11,884 nt of DNA from a virus (IMGVR_UViG_2703719368_000012:1-11884); one strand, 5' to 3'. Counted from the stretch's first letter, positions 2,814 through 11,852 are shown. Notes: generated from the letters alone by a model not told the origin. A program made the numbers and translations.

Positions 2814-3386
2814 TATCGCGTCCTCAACAATGAATTTTGTGATGCGGTGCCTGGTGCCTCCAGGTGACGTTAACCAGTTAACAATTAACGCCGGATACAG
2901 AGCATTCTCGTTACTCAGCAAATGACCGCTTTACCGATTTAACTGTTCCGCGTGCGCTGAGCCGCATTCACCGCATCACAAAATTCACTTTTAAAAAAGG
3001 GCGGCAGAGCAGTTACGGAGTAAAACTGATACCGCCAAATGTCACCAGAATATTGATAACAGAGGGCGTTGCAGCGGGGTTGTCACTTAAGCGTATGGTC
3101 AACCTGACAACCCGGTGTCCTCAACGGGGAAAGAATAACCCCGCCATACTTACCGCCGCGCCATTTCGCGGATTGCCACAACCGGAAGCGCACGGTCGAA
3201 TTAAATTTAACGACGGCTCTAAGGGAGAAGGACTTCGCCGTGCACTTTCGTGTTATGCCCTGACTTTTCAGGGATATATCCTTTCAGTAAACTGTCAGTG
3301 CCGGATTCTTATCTGTGTCCGGCGCACGACCACACGTAGCAGCGTGTTGGTCTCCATTTTTAATTCAGCCCTTAATGGAGGATAAA

Positions 3387-4722: not shown

Positions 4723-5010
4723 TCAGATAGAGAAGGGAAATTGTCGCCGAGAATGTGTCACGCTTACAATCTCAATGCTTGAAGCAGCTACTCTGTACAG
4801 GATTATGTAGTTAGGGTGGGTCACGATCTCTCTCAATCCAGAAACCCGTTCGCTTGGTGGATATAAGTACGGATGCTCAGATAGAGGTAATACCGATGTT
4901 TCAATGCGTATTTTTAGTCTACGTGCTGCCGGTGGGTTCTCCTTGGCGATGTAAGTTATGATCTGGCGCAAATCATCGCGAGCAGACGGTAGCCATAAAA
5001 TGGGTAACAT
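4723..5010 (-). CDS. Type II toxin, ParE/RelE family (95 aa)
   Basis: Product MLPILWLPSARDDLRQIITYIAKENPPAARRLKIRIETSVLPLSEHPYLYPPSERVSGLREIVTHPNYIILYRVAASSIEIVSVTHSRRQ carries the ParE/RelE signature pattern (W..A..DL..I..YI, GLRE, YII.YR, V.H..R). Its start overlaps the upstream small gene stop by 1 nt (TAATG). Confidence 0.7.
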   Translation of the reverse strand: MLPILWLPSARDDLRQIITYIAKENPPAARRLKIRIETSVLPLSEHPYLYPPSERVSGLREIVTHPNYIILYRVAASSIEIVSVTHSRRQFPFSI

Positions 5011-5201
5011 TACTCGCTCTTGTTAGTTACAGCAATTTGAGCAATAAGATTTTCCATTTCAGCCATTACCTCGTCATGTGGAATTGCGGGGCGAGTGTCT
5101 GCAAGGCTTGACGTTACTTTAGTGCGCAACCATTCGTTGTAACTGTTTTCTTGTTCGGTAGTTTCGAATTCTGAAACTATCGGAGAAAGGGCTGTACCCA
5201 T
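5010..5201 (-). CDS. Putative cognate antitoxin of the ParE/RelE-family toxin (63 aa)
   Basis: ATG at 5199-5201 with GAGGAG 5 nt upstream; small acidic product (MGTALSPIVSEFETTEQENSYNEWLRTKVTSSLADTRPAIPHDEVMAEMENLIAQIAVTNKSE); immediately upstream of and overlapping the toxin gene in the canonical antitoxin-first order. Confidence 0.6.
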   Translation of the reverse strand: MGTALSPIVSEFETTEQENSYNEWLRTKVTSSLADTRPAIPHDEVMAEMENLIAQIAVTNKSE

Positions 5202-6433: not shown

Positions 6434-6943
6434 ATGAGTAATGACAAAAAATTGACACTGAGCGTTTACGAAAACAGTCCGCACATCTGGCGTGGCGGTT
6501 TATCTGATGTGGAGCTGGCAGAGTGGTTGATACATAAAGCTAATGCGCTGCTCTGGCGTTTGTCAGCCAGAGAACAGCGCAAGGAAACCAGAATAAAGCT
6601 GGCTGATGCAGAAGCGTGTGCCGGGCTTATTGAGGATTATACAAATCTTGGTATTTCTTCAGCAGAGAGTGATCCCATTCAGCCTCTGAGCAGGGAGTCA
6701 ATCCAGCACGCTGGTTGTATGGCACATCTTGTAACTGCTCGTCAACATGAGGTGGGTATTGGATCACTTCCGGCGGGATATTCGCTGATTCCAGAGCTGG
6801 TTGAAGCAAGAAAATCAGTTCAGAAAAAGAGAGATGACGCACTTCAATTATTGAGAGAGCACTATGGCGCGATACCAGAATGCGAACAGCGTCGATACCC
6901 TGAAGGTTATGAATGGATGCAGTCTCTTTTTGAAGTTCGCTAA
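6434..6943 (+). CDS. Hypothetical early-right protein (169 aa)
   Basis: ATG at 6434 (MSNDKKLTLSVYENSPHIWRGGLSDVELAEWL...); ordinary codon usage; the RBS is weak, and an alternative GTG at 6383 would overlap the ydaT-like gene. Confidence 0.55.
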   Translation: MSNDKKLTLSVYENSPHIWRGGLSDVELAEWLIHKANALLWRLSAREQRKETRIKLADAEACAGLIEDYTNLGISSAESDPIQPLSRESIQHAGCMAHLVTARQHEVGIGSLPAGYSLIPELVEARKSVQKKRDDALQLLREHYGAIPECEQRRYPEGYEWMQSLFEVR

Positions 6944-7160
6944 TCAATATGTCGAGACGAAGGTATGTTTCGGCGCGCAGCCAGGCTCTGTAATCCGGGA
7001 GCATTTCGGGGCTGTTACACCAGCGGTTTGTTGCTGCAACATTTAATACATGAGCCTGATAAAGGCTTTTCAAAAAATACATGTCGAACCTCCTCTGGTT
7101 CTGTCGATTGGGAACCACAGATTATATCCGGAGGAAGGTTCGGCACCAGATGAGGTAGCC

Positions 7161-8252
7161 ATGCGTGATTACGCAAAAGTTTCTCCGCGATTCTGGCTGG
7201 GAGAAACGGGGAGAGAACTTAGAAAGGCGGGTGCAGAAGCGCAAGTTGTTGCTTTTTACCTGATGACATCCCCTCACGCAAATATGCTGGGTTTGTATTA
7301 CCTGCCAGTTTTATACCTTGCTCATGAAACCGGGCTTGGTCTGGAAGGGGCTTCAAAGGGGCTTAAAAGGGCTGTTGAAGCTGGTTTTTGTAGCTATGAC
7401 CATGATGCAGAGATGGTCTGGGTCCATGAAATGGCAGCCTGGCAGGTTGGGGAAACGTTGAAGCCTGGCGATAACCGTTGTGCAGGTGTCAGGAATGAGT
7501 ATGCATCATTACCTGAAAACGCTTTTCTGTCAGTGTTTTACGACAGATATAAAACGGATTTCCATCTGGATGTGAGGCGGAATAATAGCCGAAATTCGGT
7601 AAGGGGCTTCGAAGGGGCTTTTAAGGGGCTTCGAAGCCAAGAACAGGAACAGGAGCAGGAGAAAGAACAGGAACAGGACAAAAACACTATGGTTCATGGC
7701 AAAAAAAACACCACGAACCAGGCAGGGGATGTTCAGACCGTCAATCCTGGTCAGCCAGCAGGCACGACACCGGAAGCCGATTCGGGCGCTGTGCAGCAGG
7801 TGATGACCGCAGGGTCGGAGCAATCACACCAACTGCAGCAGCCTGAAGCCGATTCCGCCATTCAGCGGGAAGCCGATCGGGTAGTCCCGGAAAGCACCGG
7901 GCAGTCTGTGGGACGAGTGGATTATCCGGATGTGTTCGAACAGGTCTGGCGGGAATACCCGTTGCGTGCTGGGGCAAACCCGAAGAAATCCGCTTTCAGT
8001 GCCTGGAAGGCCAGATTGCGCGAGGGGGTGCCACCAGAGACCATGCTGGATGGTGTGAGGCGTTACGCGAGATACCTGGCGGCGACCGGGAAAGCGGGAA
8101 CGGAATTTGTTCAGCGAGCGACGACGTTTTTTGGGCCGGACCGGAATTTTGAAAACCCCTGGTTGCTCCCGGTAAGCGGCACGAACAACCAGCGTTGTGT
8201 GAATCATATTTCTGAACCGGATACCGAAATTCCGCCGGGATTCAGGGGGTGA
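7161..8252 (+). CDS. ydaU: YdaU-like (DUF1376) putative replication initiation or replisome-organizer protein with an EQ-rich linker (363 aa from this start)
   Basis: ATG at 7161 with GAGGT 4 nt upstream. N-terminal region (FWLGETGRELRKAGAEAQVVAFYLMTSPHANMLGLYYLPVLYLAHETG...EMVWVHEMAAWQVGE) matches my recollection of Rac YdaU; it directly precedes the DnaC-like gene, as lambda O precedes P. The track ORF begins at ATG 7050 but has no RBS there. Confidence 0.75.
   Translation: MRDYAKVSPRFWLGETGRELRKAGAEAQVVAFYLMTSPHANMLGLYYLPVLYLAHETGLGLEGASKGLKRAVEAGFCSYDHDAEMVWVHEMAAWQVGETLKPGDNRCAGVRNEYASLPENAFLSVFYDRYKTDFHLDVRRNNSRNSVRGFEGAFKGLRSQEQEQEQEKEQEQDKNTMVHGKKNTTNQAGDVQTVNPGQPAGTTPEADSGAVQQVMTAGSEQSHQLQQPEADSAIQREADRVVPESTGQSVGRVDYPDVFEQVWREYPLRAGANPKKSAFSAWKARLREGVPPETMLDGVRRYARYLAATGKAGTEFVQRATTFFGPDRNFENPWLLPVSGTNNQRCVNHISEPDTEIPPGFRG
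7345..7375 (+). repeat. Iteron-like direct repeats, cluster 1 (AAGGGGCTT at 11-bp spacing)
   Basis: AAGGGGCTT at 7345-7353 and 7356-7364, with a degenerate third copy (AAAAGGGCT) at about 7367; exactly 11-bp periodicity. Confidence 0.45.
7601..7682 (+). repeat. Iteron-like direct repeats, cluster 2 (3 x AAGGGGCTT at 11-bp spacing) followed by a tandem hexanucleotide (GAACAG-like) array and an A-rich tract; candidate origin within the initiator gene
   Basis: AAGGGGCTT at 7601-7609, 7612-7620 and 7623-7631; then GAACAG GAACAG GAGCAG GAGAAA GAACAG GAACAG GACAAA (7641-7682), encoding the QEQEQEQEKEQEQDK linker; then A-rich sequence including an A8 run. Confidence 0.5.
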
Positions 8253-8258
8253 TGTGGC

Positions 8259-9005
8259 ATGAAAAACATTGCGGCAGCCGGGGTTCTTGAACGTATTCGC
8301 AGACTTGCACCACAGGCGTCGGTTCCACCGTACCGGACGGTGGAGGAGTGGCGGGAATGGCAACTTGCTGAAGGACGAAAACGCAGCGAGGAGATTAACC
8401 GCCAGAATCACCAGTTGCGGGTGGAAAAAATCCTGAATCGTTCGGGCATCCAGCCTCTGCACAGCAAATGCTCGTTTGCGAATTATCAGGTGCAGAACGA
8501 CGGGCAAAAATACGCGCTGAGCCAGGCCAAATCCATAGCTGACGAACTGATGACCGGGTGCACGAATTTTGTGTTCAGCGGTAAAACCGGCACCGGGAAA
8601 AATCACCTTGCAGCGGCGATGGGTAACCGGCTGATGGCGAAGGGGCGCAGCGTGATTATCGTCACCGTGTCTGATGTCATGAGCGTGTTGCATGACAGCT
8701 ACGACAACGGCAAATCCGGGGAAAAATTTTTACAGGAGCTTTGCAGTGTTGATTTGCTGGTCCTGGATGAAATAGGCGTTCAGCGGGAGACGAAAAACGA
8801 GCAGGTGGTATTACACCAGATAATTGATCGCCGGACAGCATCACTGTGCAGTGTCGGGATGTTAACAAACCTGAATCATGCCGCAATGAGTACACTTCTT
8901 GGTGAGAGGATTATGGACCGCATGACCATGAACGGTGGTCGATGGGTGACGTTTAACTGGGATAGCTGGCGTCCAAATGTCAGCAATATGAGGGTTGTGA
9001 AGTAA
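8259..9005 (+). CDS. ydaV: DnaC-like AAA+ helicase loader (YdaV-like replication protein, 248 aa)
   Basis: Walker A GKTGTGKNHLAAA and Walker B LLVLDEIG; N-terminus MKNIAAAGVLERIRRLAP as I recall for Rac YdaV; ATG 6 nt after the upstream stop, AGGGGG RBS. Confidence 0.9.
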   Translation: MKNIAAAGVLERIRRLAPQASVPPYRTVEEWREWQLAEGRKRSEEINRQNHQLRVEKILNRSGIQPLHSKCSFANYQVQNDGQKYALSQAKSIADELMTGCTNFVFSGKTGTGKNHLAAAMGNRLMAKGRSVIIVTVSDVMSVLHDSYDNGKSGEKFLQELCSVDLLVLDEIGVQRETKNEQVVLHQIIDRRTASLCSVGMLTNLNHAAMSTLLGERIMDRMTMNGGRWVTFNWDSWRPNVSNMRVVK

Positions 9006-9026: not shown

Positions 9027-9614
9027 ATGGAAACCGTATCTGACGCACTGAAAGCACTGAAAAAAGCCTCTTCACATGTGGTGGCAGCTCGCCTTGGAAT
9101 CAGTCGTGAAGAGGCTGTCAACGAGCTGTGGGAACTCAAAATAAATGGCGTCGTTGATAAAACTGGTCACACCTGGTTTCTGGCTGGCGAAGGTGAATCC
9201 CGGGTAACCGAAGAGCGGCCAGTAAAATCTGAAGCACAGGATATGCTGACCGGGGAGGTCGAACAAAAAGTTACCGCAGACATGATGATTGAGTTTATCG
9301 GTCAGGATGGGGCTAAAACGTGTGAGGAACTGGCGGGTAAGTTCGGTGTCAGTACTCGCAAGGTTGCTTCCACGCTGGCGGTGGTAACCGCAACGGGGCG
9401 GCTGGCACGCGTTAATCAGAACGGTAAATTTCGTTACTGCATGCCGGGCGATAATTTACCAGCAGAGCCGAAAGCCGCGCTGGTAACGGAAAGTGATGGT
9501 AAGGCCTTTCCTCAGAACGTGTTGTATCGGAAAAGTGATTGCCGGAGGCGCTTATGGCAAAAGTATTTACACAGGAAGAGCGGGAAAAAATTAAAGGGCA
9601 GGTTGTTGAGCTAG
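9027..9614 (+). CDS. Hypothetical prophage protein with winged-helix-like repeats (possibly DUF1627-like), 195 aa
   Basis: ATG at 9027 with GGAGG 8 nt upstream; two similar HTH-like segments (ARLGISREEAVNELWELKINGVVDKTG and ELAGKFGVSTRKVASTLAVVTATGRLARV). The last 25 or so codons overlap the next gene and look low-quality. Confidence 0.6.
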   Translation: METVSDALKALKKASSHVVAARLGISREEAVNELWELKINGVVDKTGHTWFLAGEGESRVTEERPVKSEAQDMLTGEVEQKVTADMMIEFIGQDGAKTCEELAGKFGVSTRKVASTLAVVTATGRLARVNQNGKFRYCMPGDNLPAEPKAALVTESDGKAFPQNVLYRKSDCRRRLWQKYLHRKSGKKLKGRLLS

Positions 9615-9967
9615 TACGCCGGAGTGGGCGCGAGACGTTACGGCAACTGGAAGCCAAGACAGGTGCGACAAGATATCTGATGAGCGTTCTTGCCAGAGAG
9701 CTGGTTGCCAGTGGCGATGTATACAACTCTGGTTACGGGTTATTCCCATCTGAACAGGCTCGTAAGGACTGGCAAAACGCCCGCAAAAAACTATCGAGGG
9801 CAAAACTGAAGAAACCGGTTGTGGTTGATCCTGACCTTATCTGGTCATTACCAGACGGAGAAATACGCCGCTATGACAGGCAATTGAACATAATTTGTAG
9901 TGAGTGCCGTAACAGTGAAGTGATGCAGCGAGTTTTGATATTTTACACAGGAGTAATGATGGAATAG
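9554..9967 (+). CDS. Hypothetical prophage protein (137 aa)
   Basis: ATG at 9554 with GGAGG 5 nt upstream; product MAKVFTQEEREKIKGQVVELVRRSGRETLRQLEAKTGATRYLMSVLARELVASGDVY... includes a winged-helix-like segment and a CSECRNSE motif near the C-terminus. Confidence 0.55.
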   Translation: MAKVFTQEEREKIKGQVVELVRRSGRETLRQLEAKTGATRYLMSVLARELVASGDVYNSGYGLFPSEQARKDWQNARKKLSRAKLKKPVVVDPDLIWSLPDGEIRRYDRQLNIICSECRNSEVMQRVLIFYTGVMME

Positions 9968-10318
9968 TGAAAATAACATGAAACCTTTGGATTCTGGTGT
10001 TTCAGTGGATGGGAAAAGAGCAGATACATAGAAAATGAATAGCAATAATTCACAGTCTGGATGTTGTTTGTATGCTTATAAAATGATCCTAGTATGCATT
10101 GCCGGAGTTGAATCAGCTCCAATGAAGAAACTGAGAGGAGTATTTAGAAGATAGCTAAATGGATGTAATTATTAGTATCTAAAAAATAGTATTTTTGAAA
10201 TGGGTCTAAGAACACAACAATGTACAAATGAGAAGTTATCTTTTAATATGTTCAAAGACCCATTAGGATTGATATCAGTTATGTTAGCTAGATTGATAAA
10301 GTGATTACATATTTTCTG

Positions 10319-11092
10319 TTATATGCTGAAATGAATAATGCTATTCCAGAGTGCAGCAGAGAAAGTCTCCTGATGATTGAGCTCTGGAAATTGTACAATA
10401 GAAAAATTACTGTATTTTTCTGTCAAAATATTTCTCAAAACAGATTCCGCTTTGATGGCTTCAGGATATAAAGATGCGGAGTAATCAAGGCTAAGATTTC
10501 CGTTAAGCAAGCATATACTTTTAGTGTGCTTTGATTCTGATATATCATCTTTAATTATCTTGATGATTCTTTCATTCTGCCATAGAAGTGATGGTGCAGA
10601 TATATAATAATAGTTAAAGCATGAATTATTTTTTAAGCAATCAAGCACAAAAATAGCACCTAGCGAGTGCCCCCATATACCGATTCTGGAACTGTTCGGA
10701 GCAATAGTACTAACCCATGGCATGATCTGAGTTAGTAATAATTCTCGGAAAGACTGGCTTCCTCCACCAGTAAAGTAGATCCATGCTGGTTTAGAGTTAT
10801 CAACAATAGCATTTTCACCATCAGGAGTATAATCGTAAGCACGGCGATGAATGCTAAGGTTATTCCAAGATTCATAACCAAGTGTAACTAACACTGGTGG
10901 ATTGGGTAGTGCATCAATAACAGGCAGAATATCAGAAATGTAATTGTTGGCACTATTCCCATCAAGTATATAAAGAGTTGCATTATTTTTTTTAATGTTT
11001 TTTGGAGTAAAAATACATATTTTATATTTGGTGTCATGGTTAATTGAGTTAAATATGCGTGTTTGACAATGAATGTCCATATGTTTAGTCAT
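10319..11092 (-). CDS. Alpha/beta-hydrolase esterase (PF00756-like putative esterase / siderophore-esterase fold), 257 aa, no signal peptide; AT-rich cargo (moron) gene
   Basis: Catalytic nucleophile elbow GHSLG; N-terminal LYILDGNS motif and IFTP strand typical of the Fes/IroE/esterase D family; GGAG-type RBS upstream of ATG 11092; local base composition is strongly AT-rich relative to the flanking prophage genes. Confidence 0.8.
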   Translation of the reverse strand: MTKHMDIHCQTRIFNSINHDTKYKICIFTPKNIKKNNATLYILDGNSANNYISDILPVIDALPNPPVLVTLGYESWNNLSIHRRAYDYTPDGENAIVDNSKPAWIYFTGGGSQSFRELLLTQIMPWVSTIAPNSSRIGIWGHSLGAIFVLDCLKNNSCFNYYYISAPSLLWQNERIIKIIKDDISESKHTKSICLLNGNLSLDYSASLYPEAIKAESVLRNILTEKYSNFSIVQFPELNHQETFSAALWNSIIHFSI

Positions 11093-11492
11093 GCGTTCTC
11101 CCCATGAGCATTAAAGGATGCTTAAGATATGCTATGTCACTGATAAAAAATTTGTTGTGTGTGTTTAGTTATTTTATCTACCTCCATTATGATTTAAGAC
11201 TGATATATGTTATCAGCAAAGGTACATCGTTATTATTTTACCTGTCAATACATTTGATATTGATTATCGTTTACATCGCTTGCTTAGGAAATTGAAGGCA
11301 GGTAACTATCATGTCAATGAACTAACCCACAGTCTAACGTACTTCTTTCCCCAATCACCAACAACCAAATTCCTGTTATCACCACTGGGATTTTGGCGCA
11401 ACTTCATGGTGCAGAGGTAAATAGCATCAAGCAAAATCTCTTTTTCCGTTGTTGTCCTTATGGGACGTCTGTCTTTCTGACCGATTTCATAT

Positions 11493-11521: not shown

Positions 11522-11589
11522 AGCTGCGGGTGCTTGAGGCTATCTGCCTCGGGCATGAACACCAACGGCAGATAGAGAAAAGCCCCAGT

Positions 11590-11657
11590 TAACATTACGC
11601 GTCCTGCAAGACGCCTAACATTAATCTGAGGCTCAATCTATGAACGGCAAATCTAGG
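11590..11657 (-). ncRNA. sok: Putative Sok-like antisense RNA (type I antitoxin), approximate boundaries
   Basis: Minus-strand candidate -10 TAAGAG (plus-strand 11664-11669) sits opposite the start region of the upstream ORF, as in R1 sok; a hairpin GCGTC/GACGC (11599-11614) lies at the expected 3' end. Ends are not determinable from sequence alone. Confidence 0.35.
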
Positions 11658-11696
11658 TTAGCCTCTTACGTGCCGAAAGGCAAGGAGAAGCAGGCT

Positions 11697-11852
11697 ATGA
11701 AGCAGCAAAAGGCGATGTTAATCGCCCTGATCGTCATCTGTTTAACCGTCATAGTGACGGCACTGGTAACGAGGAAAGACCTCTGCGAGGTACGAGTCCG
11801 AACCGGCCAGACGGAGGTCGCTGTCTTCACAGCTTACGAACCTGAGGAGTAA
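11697..11852 (+). CDS. hok: Hok/Gef-family type I toxin (51 aa); an in-frame upstream ATG at 11640 gives a mok-like leader reading frame
   Basis: Product MKQQKAMLIALIVICLTVIVTALVTRKDLCEVRVRTGQTEVAVFTAYEPEE is a canonical Hok-family sequence (single TM helix, conserved Cys, C-terminal YEPEE), closely matching my recollection of HokD/RelF. The track ORF 11640-11852 extends the frame upstream by 19 codons. Confidence 0.85.
   Translation: MKQQKAMLIALIVICLTVIVTALVTRKDLCEVRVRTGQTEVAVFTAYEPEE

Follow-up and report, generated by a model that had tools for sequence, protein, structure and literature searches.

The gene ECs_1077 of Escherichia coli prophage Sp4 encodes a divergent, uncharacterised addition to a known enzyme family, and it does so in a known setting, that of a phage moron. 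Judged by homology, the protein very probably belongs to the IroE/PfeE/BesA clade of siderophore esterases, as a very divergent member. The explanation that accounts best for the data is that it could be a cytoplasmic Ser-His esterase of the IroE type, expressed in the lysogen and acting on the ester backbones of catecholate siderophores; belief and doubt in this explanation are about equal.

The gene and its relatives

The stretch of DNA analysed here (the window; 11,884 nucleotides, IMGVR_UViG_2703719368_000012:1-11884) is in its entirety the early region of a lambdoid prophage. The esterase gene (ECs_1077, product WP_000160654.1) lies on the minus strand at 10319..11092 and encodes 257 amino acids, predicted to form a leaderless serine hydrolase of the IroE family. 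An open frame of 257 codons at 34.5% GC is calculated to arise by chance with a probability of about 4e-9 (stop-codon frequency ~0.072 per codon). Because an in-frame stop is found 7 codons 5' of the ATG and a Shine-Dalgarno sequence (GGGGAGAA, 11096-11103, minus strand; unchanged across all alleles) precedes the ATG by 5 nt, the short N-terminus is real and the start codon fixed. In the translation, residues 40-47 read LYILDGNS and residues 141-145 read GHSLG, and so the alpha/beta hydrolase with these motifs that a preliminary description of this DNA had reported is borne out in its reading frame and motifs, as well as in its similarity to IroE (below). The same description had the gene lying in an AT-rich segment and running against the phage operon, and this too is correct: the gene has a GC content of 0.345 (GC3 0.283) versus 0.48 in the remaining window, with 0.313 in the 3' flank (9968-10318) and 0.368 in the 5' flank, and its orientation opposes both the plus-strand replication operon and hok/sok.

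When solved structures were searched with phmmer, IroE was matched at E = 5e-26 over residues 8-253, with weaker matches to BES (9e-13) and PfeE (1.5e-11); a profile search matched IroE at 7.7e-124. The fold is that of a single-domain alpha/beta-hydrolase whose nearest solved structures are siderophore esterases. The six closest structures are all of this kind, with a clear score gap before other esterases, and the structure of Fes scores below those of the IroE type. (The fold model was built from the alignment; single-sequence AlphaFold2 gave only pLDDT 47.) The protein had been placed broadly in a Fes/IroE/esterase D family; the Fes/IroE branch of that assignment holds, but the esterase D part does not, and the clade is specifically that of IroE, PfeE and BesA. 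Pfam, which had been suggested as a check, gives a match to PF00756 (Esterase) of 17 bits (E = 0.005), below the 22-bit cut-off, and the family assignment therefore rests on the sequence and fold searches of the PDB. PF00756 is present in all relatives. A search of NCBIfam with the esterase gave no match, and the PHROG family that it matches has no assigned function.

Among 1.84 billion representative proteins, 998 matched the family at E < 1e-3. Within this set there is a wide identity gap, since the E. coli alleles are at least 83% identical and the next relatives at most 36%. In a distance tree the prophage protein falls outside all 58 relatives, at the end of a long stem. The nearest of these (31-36% identical) come from Pantoea and an Acinetobacter-like organism, where they stand alone, outside siderophore clusters.

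The N-terminus is the first point at which the protein departs from its family. A 42-67 aa N-terminal extension, in which a conserved PLGPNIADxGS segment comes after a hydrophobic stretch, is found in 57 of the 58 relatives. The prophage protein has no such leader: as the preliminary description had noted in calling it free of a signal peptide, the conserved core starts after only 7 residues, and the maximum hydropathy is -0.07. Since both a leader and a hydrophobic segment are lacking, the sequence makes a cytoplasmic location probable. This predicted site would be like that of BesA and Fes, and unlike that of IroE, PfeE and Cee.

The catalytic residues, on the other hand, are those of IroE. 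In the alignment Ser143 corresponds to Ser189, His240 to His287, Asp44 to Asp90 and Arg84 to Arg130 (the 2gzr chain numbering is offset by 40 from full-length IroE; Ser143 and His240 align with chain residues 149 and 247). None of the four varies in the 61 aligned sequences or in any allele. Arg130 of IroE was reportedly described by Larsen et al. in 2006 as an atypical oxyanion hole, with Asp90 as its anchor. IroE works with a Ser189-His287 dyad (PMC10515146, PMC7034887), the sole exception among 40 alpha/beta-hydrolase families, the rest of which have a triad (PMC10515146, PMC7034887, PMC2661963). Fes has a Ser-His-Glu triad (PMC10515146), and PfeE is proposed to use a Ser/Glu217/His258 triad (PMC11852561).

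Close to these residues the prophage protein departs from positions that its family conserves, and every allele carries the replacements. The context of the nucleophile Ser143 is G-H-S-L-G-A, as against GHS-Y-G-G in relatives, with Ala at position 146 where 58 of 58 relatives have Gly. Position 241, next to the catalytic histidine, is Gln (His-Gln) and is again Gly in 58 of 58 relatives (His-Gly). Position 197 is Asn or Ser; relatives have Glu (53/58) or Asp (2/58) at this point, the Glu after strand beta-7 in the motif 'MEG'. Glu217 of PfeE aligns four residues downstream of the 'MEG' Glu, and Asp203 was considered as a candidate substitute for the catalytic acid. Of the Ser-Asp-His triad that had been expected, then, Ser143 and His240 are conserved and the usual acid position is not. 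Because the reference enzyme IroE itself uses a Ser-His dyad, the absence of a triad is no valid refutation of the assignment. Taken with the long branch, the active-site changes could mean that the substrate is a different one.

Comparison with the characterised enzymes sharpens these differences. IroE (a salmochelin/enterobactin trilactone hydrolase of E. coli CFT073 and Salmonella; structures 2GZR/2GZS) has an N-terminal leader or anchor, is periplasmic, is encoded within iroBCDEN, and carries GHSYGG, the Glu after beta-7 and His-Gly; the prophage protein has GHSLGA, Asn/Ser and His-Gln at these sites and is leaderless, stand-alone and phage-borne. The ferric-enterobactin esterase PfeE of Pseudomonas aeruginosa (6GI0) is also periplasmic, and is 22-23% identical to the prophage protein; its gene is linked to the pfeA receptor gene. 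BesA/BES, the Bacillus bacillibactin esterase (2QM0), shows ~20% identity and is encoded by a Gram-positive chromosomal gene that is regulated with the bacillibactin system and is not phage-borne. The cytoplasmic esterases of enterobactin and salmochelin, Fes and IroD, have an extra N-terminal domain of ~150 aa and a total length of ~380-400 aa, whereas the prophage protein is a bare catalytic domain of 257 aa in which the Glu is absent.

The cassette and its slot

The esterase gene occupies a variable slot in the early-right region. The plus-strand order in the window is replication genes (an O-like gene at 7050-8252 and a DnaC-like gene at 8259-9005), DUF1627, DUF977 and then hok/sok. The left anchor of the slot is the DUF977 gene (ECs_1076, 9554-9967, plus strand) and the right anchor is the hok/sok (hokD) locus (11528-11852, plus strand), which comprises an Rfam sok match at 11528-11702 and mok/hok reading frames at 11640-11852; conserved hok/sok DNA begins at ~11480. 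In every locus examined the esterase has the phage genes DUF977 and hokD as its neighbours, and at these loci no iroBCDN or other siderophore uptake or synthesis genes were found beside it. Other prophages have QueH, DUF7167 with small hypotheticals, a methyltransferase, or an ORF6N-domain gene in the same slot, so that the suggested comparison of syntenic prophages does reveal presence and absence of the island, with other cargo in its place.

The cassette common to all alleles spans approximately 9968-11345, the 11345 side being its right end. Its least conserved part is the 3' non-coding flank (9968-10318; 31% GC), which shows 76-78% identity and indels between allele classes; the 5' non-coding flank (11093-11345), which contains the promoter/operator block, is 88-99% identical between classes. 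Just beyond the right end, and outside the cassette, 28 codons are left of an ORF6N-domain gene (11354-11437, plus strand). They are 61% identical to residues 13-40 of WP_000211993.1, the product of an intact ORF6N gene that occupies the same slot in strain 2015C-3905. The remnant accompanies allele classes A and B and is absent from C. That 11354-11437 is what is left of an alternative occupant of the slot argues that the cassette proper ends near 11345.

The phage backbones around the alleles are mosaic, with the O-like gene absent or different, the DnaC-like gene 78% identical and DUF977 72-92% identical. No direct repeats or att-like sites were found at the cassette ends. Because three allele classes with a dS of ~0.3 occupy the same slot within mosaic backbones, the cassette is not a recent insertion; it is foreign by composition, an old resident of its slot, and has been spread by phage recombination. 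The gene had been described as horizontally acquired cargo, which its composition supports, with the qualification that the acquisition was old rather than recent. Allele class B (loci L020 and L021) is 98.8% identical to the window in the right flank, 92.6% in the gene and 78% in the left flank, and this unevenness argues for recombination breakpoints inside the cassette as well.

The cassette has the features of a moron: deviant composition, presence or absence at a fixed site, and a predicted promoter and 3' hairpin (below). It resembles the morons of lambdoid phages in all of these and in its opposite orientation. It differs from the classic ones in its location, since they occupy late-region sites and the esterase an early-right one, with the replication genes on one side and hok on the other, and in being old enough to have formed three diverged allele classes.

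Several other features of the window and of related loci may be recorded here. The minus-strand genes of the early-left part include DicF, a RelBE pair and the repressor. The DicF antisense sRNA is at 2999-3050 (minus strand; Rfam 76.9 bits) and the RelE/RelB toxin-antitoxin pair at 4723-5201 (minus strand), so that the window as a whole carries two toxin-antitoxin loci (RelE/RelB and hok/sok) and a DicB/DicF division-inhibition module. Another minus-strand gene within the plus-strand early operon, at 6627-7118 between the YdaT-like and replication genes, is entered in RefSeq as 'ECs1072 family phage-associated protein' (456 nt) and may be a further independently transcribed cargo gene. In the DUF1627 gene (ORF 9027..9614), 261 bp of the Sakai Sp4 gene ECs_1075 are replaced by 2 bp at window positions 9516-9517. 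The net deletion of 259 bp causes a frameshift and gives a product of 195 aa versus 256 aa, the longer form being that of most O157 genomes. At the locus L001 17137-20000, from O157:H7 strain PV15-279, the DUF977 gene upstream of the cassette is split by ISEc8 (IS66-family); it is intact in the window.

Alleles, occurrence and candidate expression signals

The alleles recovered from IMG/VR and RefSeq fall into three classes: A, that of the window, B, with 92% amino acid identity, and C, with ~90%. Pairwise dN/dS among the three classes is 0.16-0.25, with dS up to 0.32, and 8 of 9 distinct gene sequences have an uninterrupted reading frame. The esterase gene is under purifying selection. Some copies are pseudogenes: at L026 6001-6770 a 1-nt deletion leaves a 773-nt gene with 7 internal stops on translation, and a scrambled 209-aa version (P0017) comes from a 5.15-Mb contig.

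E. coli O157:H7 and strains of O145, O26 and O103 contain DNA 100% identical to the 1.3-kb segment. Of 5426 complete E. coli genomes, 471 have it, 458 at >=99% identity and 13 at 80-90%. A 286,775-bp record labelled as an O157:H7 EDL933 plasmid, NZ_CP124741.1, also has the esterase at 100% identity, and looks like chromosomal prophage DNA filed under plasmid. The Sakai copy is annotated as a 'hypothetical protein' of 'prophage Sp4, lambda-like phage', adjoining yccA, and RefSeq and all other sources name WP_000160654.1 only as 'alpha/beta hydrolase'. The literature searched contained no mention of ECs1077 or WP_000160654, no papers on a prophage-encoded siderophore esterase or a phage-encoded enterobactin esterase, and no expression or activity data for ECs_1077. 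A scan of IMG/VR with the single esterase protein found 18 prophage loci; an alignment-based scan found nothing, its patterns (WGHS[YF]GGL) being ones that do not fit the prophage protein. Isolated phages gave zero megablast matches to the esterase, and tblastn against phages gave only distant IroE genes in records of bacterial appearance, which were set aside. The BFVD viral structure library held no close fold relative (TM <= 0.54).

A sigma-70-like promoter is predicted on the minus strand at 11186-11213, with a -35 element ATAACA (11213-11208), a 16-nt spacer and a -10 element CATAAT (11191-11186). This block is unchanged in the three allele classes, within surrounding sequence that is ~10% diverged. 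A perfect palindrome, CTGATAACATATATCAG (CTGATA-N5-TATCAG, 11200-11216), overlaps the predicted -35 element, is invariant in all alleles, and is a candidate operator; identification as a LexA box was rejected, since the CTG...CAG spacing is 11 and not 10. Farther upstream on the minus strand is a Fur-box-like site (11256-11274) with 15 of 19 matches to GATAATGATAATCATTATC, the best in the whole window; when the AT-rich region was shuffled 2000 times, a score as high arose in only 17 cases. It lies ~45 nt upstream of the -35 element, does not overlap the promoter, and falls to 14/19 in allele class C. On the 3' side, a hairpin followed by a T-rich stretch (10199-10264, minus strand; z = -2.6) lies 55 nt past the esterase stop and is a possible terminator of the esterase transcript; its basal 8 bp are kept among alleles and its loop is variable. 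A permissive Rfam search of the island gave a single snoRNA match at chance level, which was discarded.

Possible functions

In the explanation favoured here, the gene would have descended from esterases of the IroE/PfeE/BesA group and would persist as a self-contained moron between DUF977 and hok in lambdoid prophages of E. coli. It would be transcribed from its own predicted promoter, against the phage early-right operon, and it is because this promoter opposes the operon that expression in the lysogen is expected. Ser143 would attack the ester bond with His240 as the base, as in the IroE dyad, and Arg84 would be held by Asp44, the counterparts of Arg130 and Asp90 of IroE. The likeliest substrates would be enterobactin, its linear DHBS oligomers, or a foreign trilactone, for instance salmochelin or bacillibactin, once these had reached the cytoplasm. 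The protein could then play a role like that of Fes or BesA and provide extra iron release or siderophore recycling in EHEC, which lacks the iro cluster. We infer the cytoplasmic location, the lysogen expression and, above all, the substrate. Analogy with the relatives would make that substrate a siderophore, a proposal that could go either way.

Several results count against this explanation. There are no linked siderophore genes, the nearest relatives stand alone, residues beside the catalytic ones have changed, and the protein lies on a long branch; the Pfam score is below threshold, NCBIfam gives no match, and the Fur-like site is located off the promoter and is weaker in allele class C. 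O157:H7, moreover, presumably already has Fes.

Much of this evidence suits the main rival, a neofunctionalised esterase that has kept the IroE fold with its Ser-His and Arg-Asp pairs and has turned to a cytoplasmic ester or amide other than a siderophore, for example a metabolite, a toxin, or a small molecule derived from phage or host. Such retargeting is possible but on balance doubtful. It would fit the GHSLGA and His-Gln motifs and the loss of the Glu beside the nucleophile and base, all fixed in every allele, the long isolated branch with nothing between 36% and 83% identity, the change of compartment, and the lack of siderophore gene context. Yet the six closest structures, set off by their score gap, are siderophore esterases, the unusual Arg/Asp pair of the IroE type is retained, a Fur-like site lies upstream, and no data suggest another substrate.

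A phage-directed function, in superinfection exclusion, defence or counter-defence, is improbable. The slot is hypervariable, adjoins the replication genes and houses diverse accessory genes (QueH, methyltransferase, ORF6N), and the neighbouring ECs_1076 is annotated in Sakai as a 'phage exclusion protein'; these are the grounds on which the idea was considered. However, the PADLOC defence models gave 0 families at E <= 1, there is no partner gene, neither isolated phages nor the viral structure library yielded a similar enzyme, and the biology of the family offers no link to phage.

It is still less probable that the protein is secreted or injected by type III secretion and for this reason lacks a Sec signal, like many products of AT-rich EHEC prophage genes. 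The 100%-identical allele in O157:H7, O145, O26 and O103 strains, an AT-rich composition of the kind usual in prophage effector genes and the missing Sec leader would all suit an effector, but the locus is not an effector locus downstream of tail genes, the relatives are periplasmic or cytoplasmic bacterial enzymes, and the other allele classes are not tied to LEE-positive hosts. To our knowledge, the esterase is not among the experimentally defined Sakai effectors.

Finally, there is very little to recommend an inactive relic, that is, a 5'-truncated iroE-like gene that lost its function after acquisition by the phage, for although the leader and the PLGPNIADxGS segment are missing, the conserved Glu is lost and the frameshifted copies L026 and P0017 exist, dN/dS stays at 0.16-0.25 across three classes whose dS reaches 0.32, no catalytic residue has been lost, neither the Shine-Dalgarno sequence nor the promoter block varies, and the frame is intact in 8/9 distinct sequences.

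Prophages carry much of what sets EHEC apart from harmless E. coli, and iron acquisition is central to gut colonisation. Should the protein prove inactive on siderophores, it would be just one more uncharacterised moron. If it is an active cytoplasmic siderophore esterase, prophages of the Sp4/CP-933M type would add to iron piracy, a contribution by a phage gene that is unreported in the literature searched, and the protein would be a natural IroE-type enzyme in a new compartment, with a Ser-His dyad that works without the conserved Glu of its family. More speculatively, this may be the first phage-borne siderophore processor, an IroE-type esterase stripped of its export signal and altered around the active site, which would free iron in the cytoplasm of EHEC lysogens from foreign ester siderophores that Fes handles poorly, or else an enzyme for a different cytoplasmic ester; either way, it might be a fitness factor of O157:H7 and related EHEC, overlooked under the label 'hypothetical protein'.
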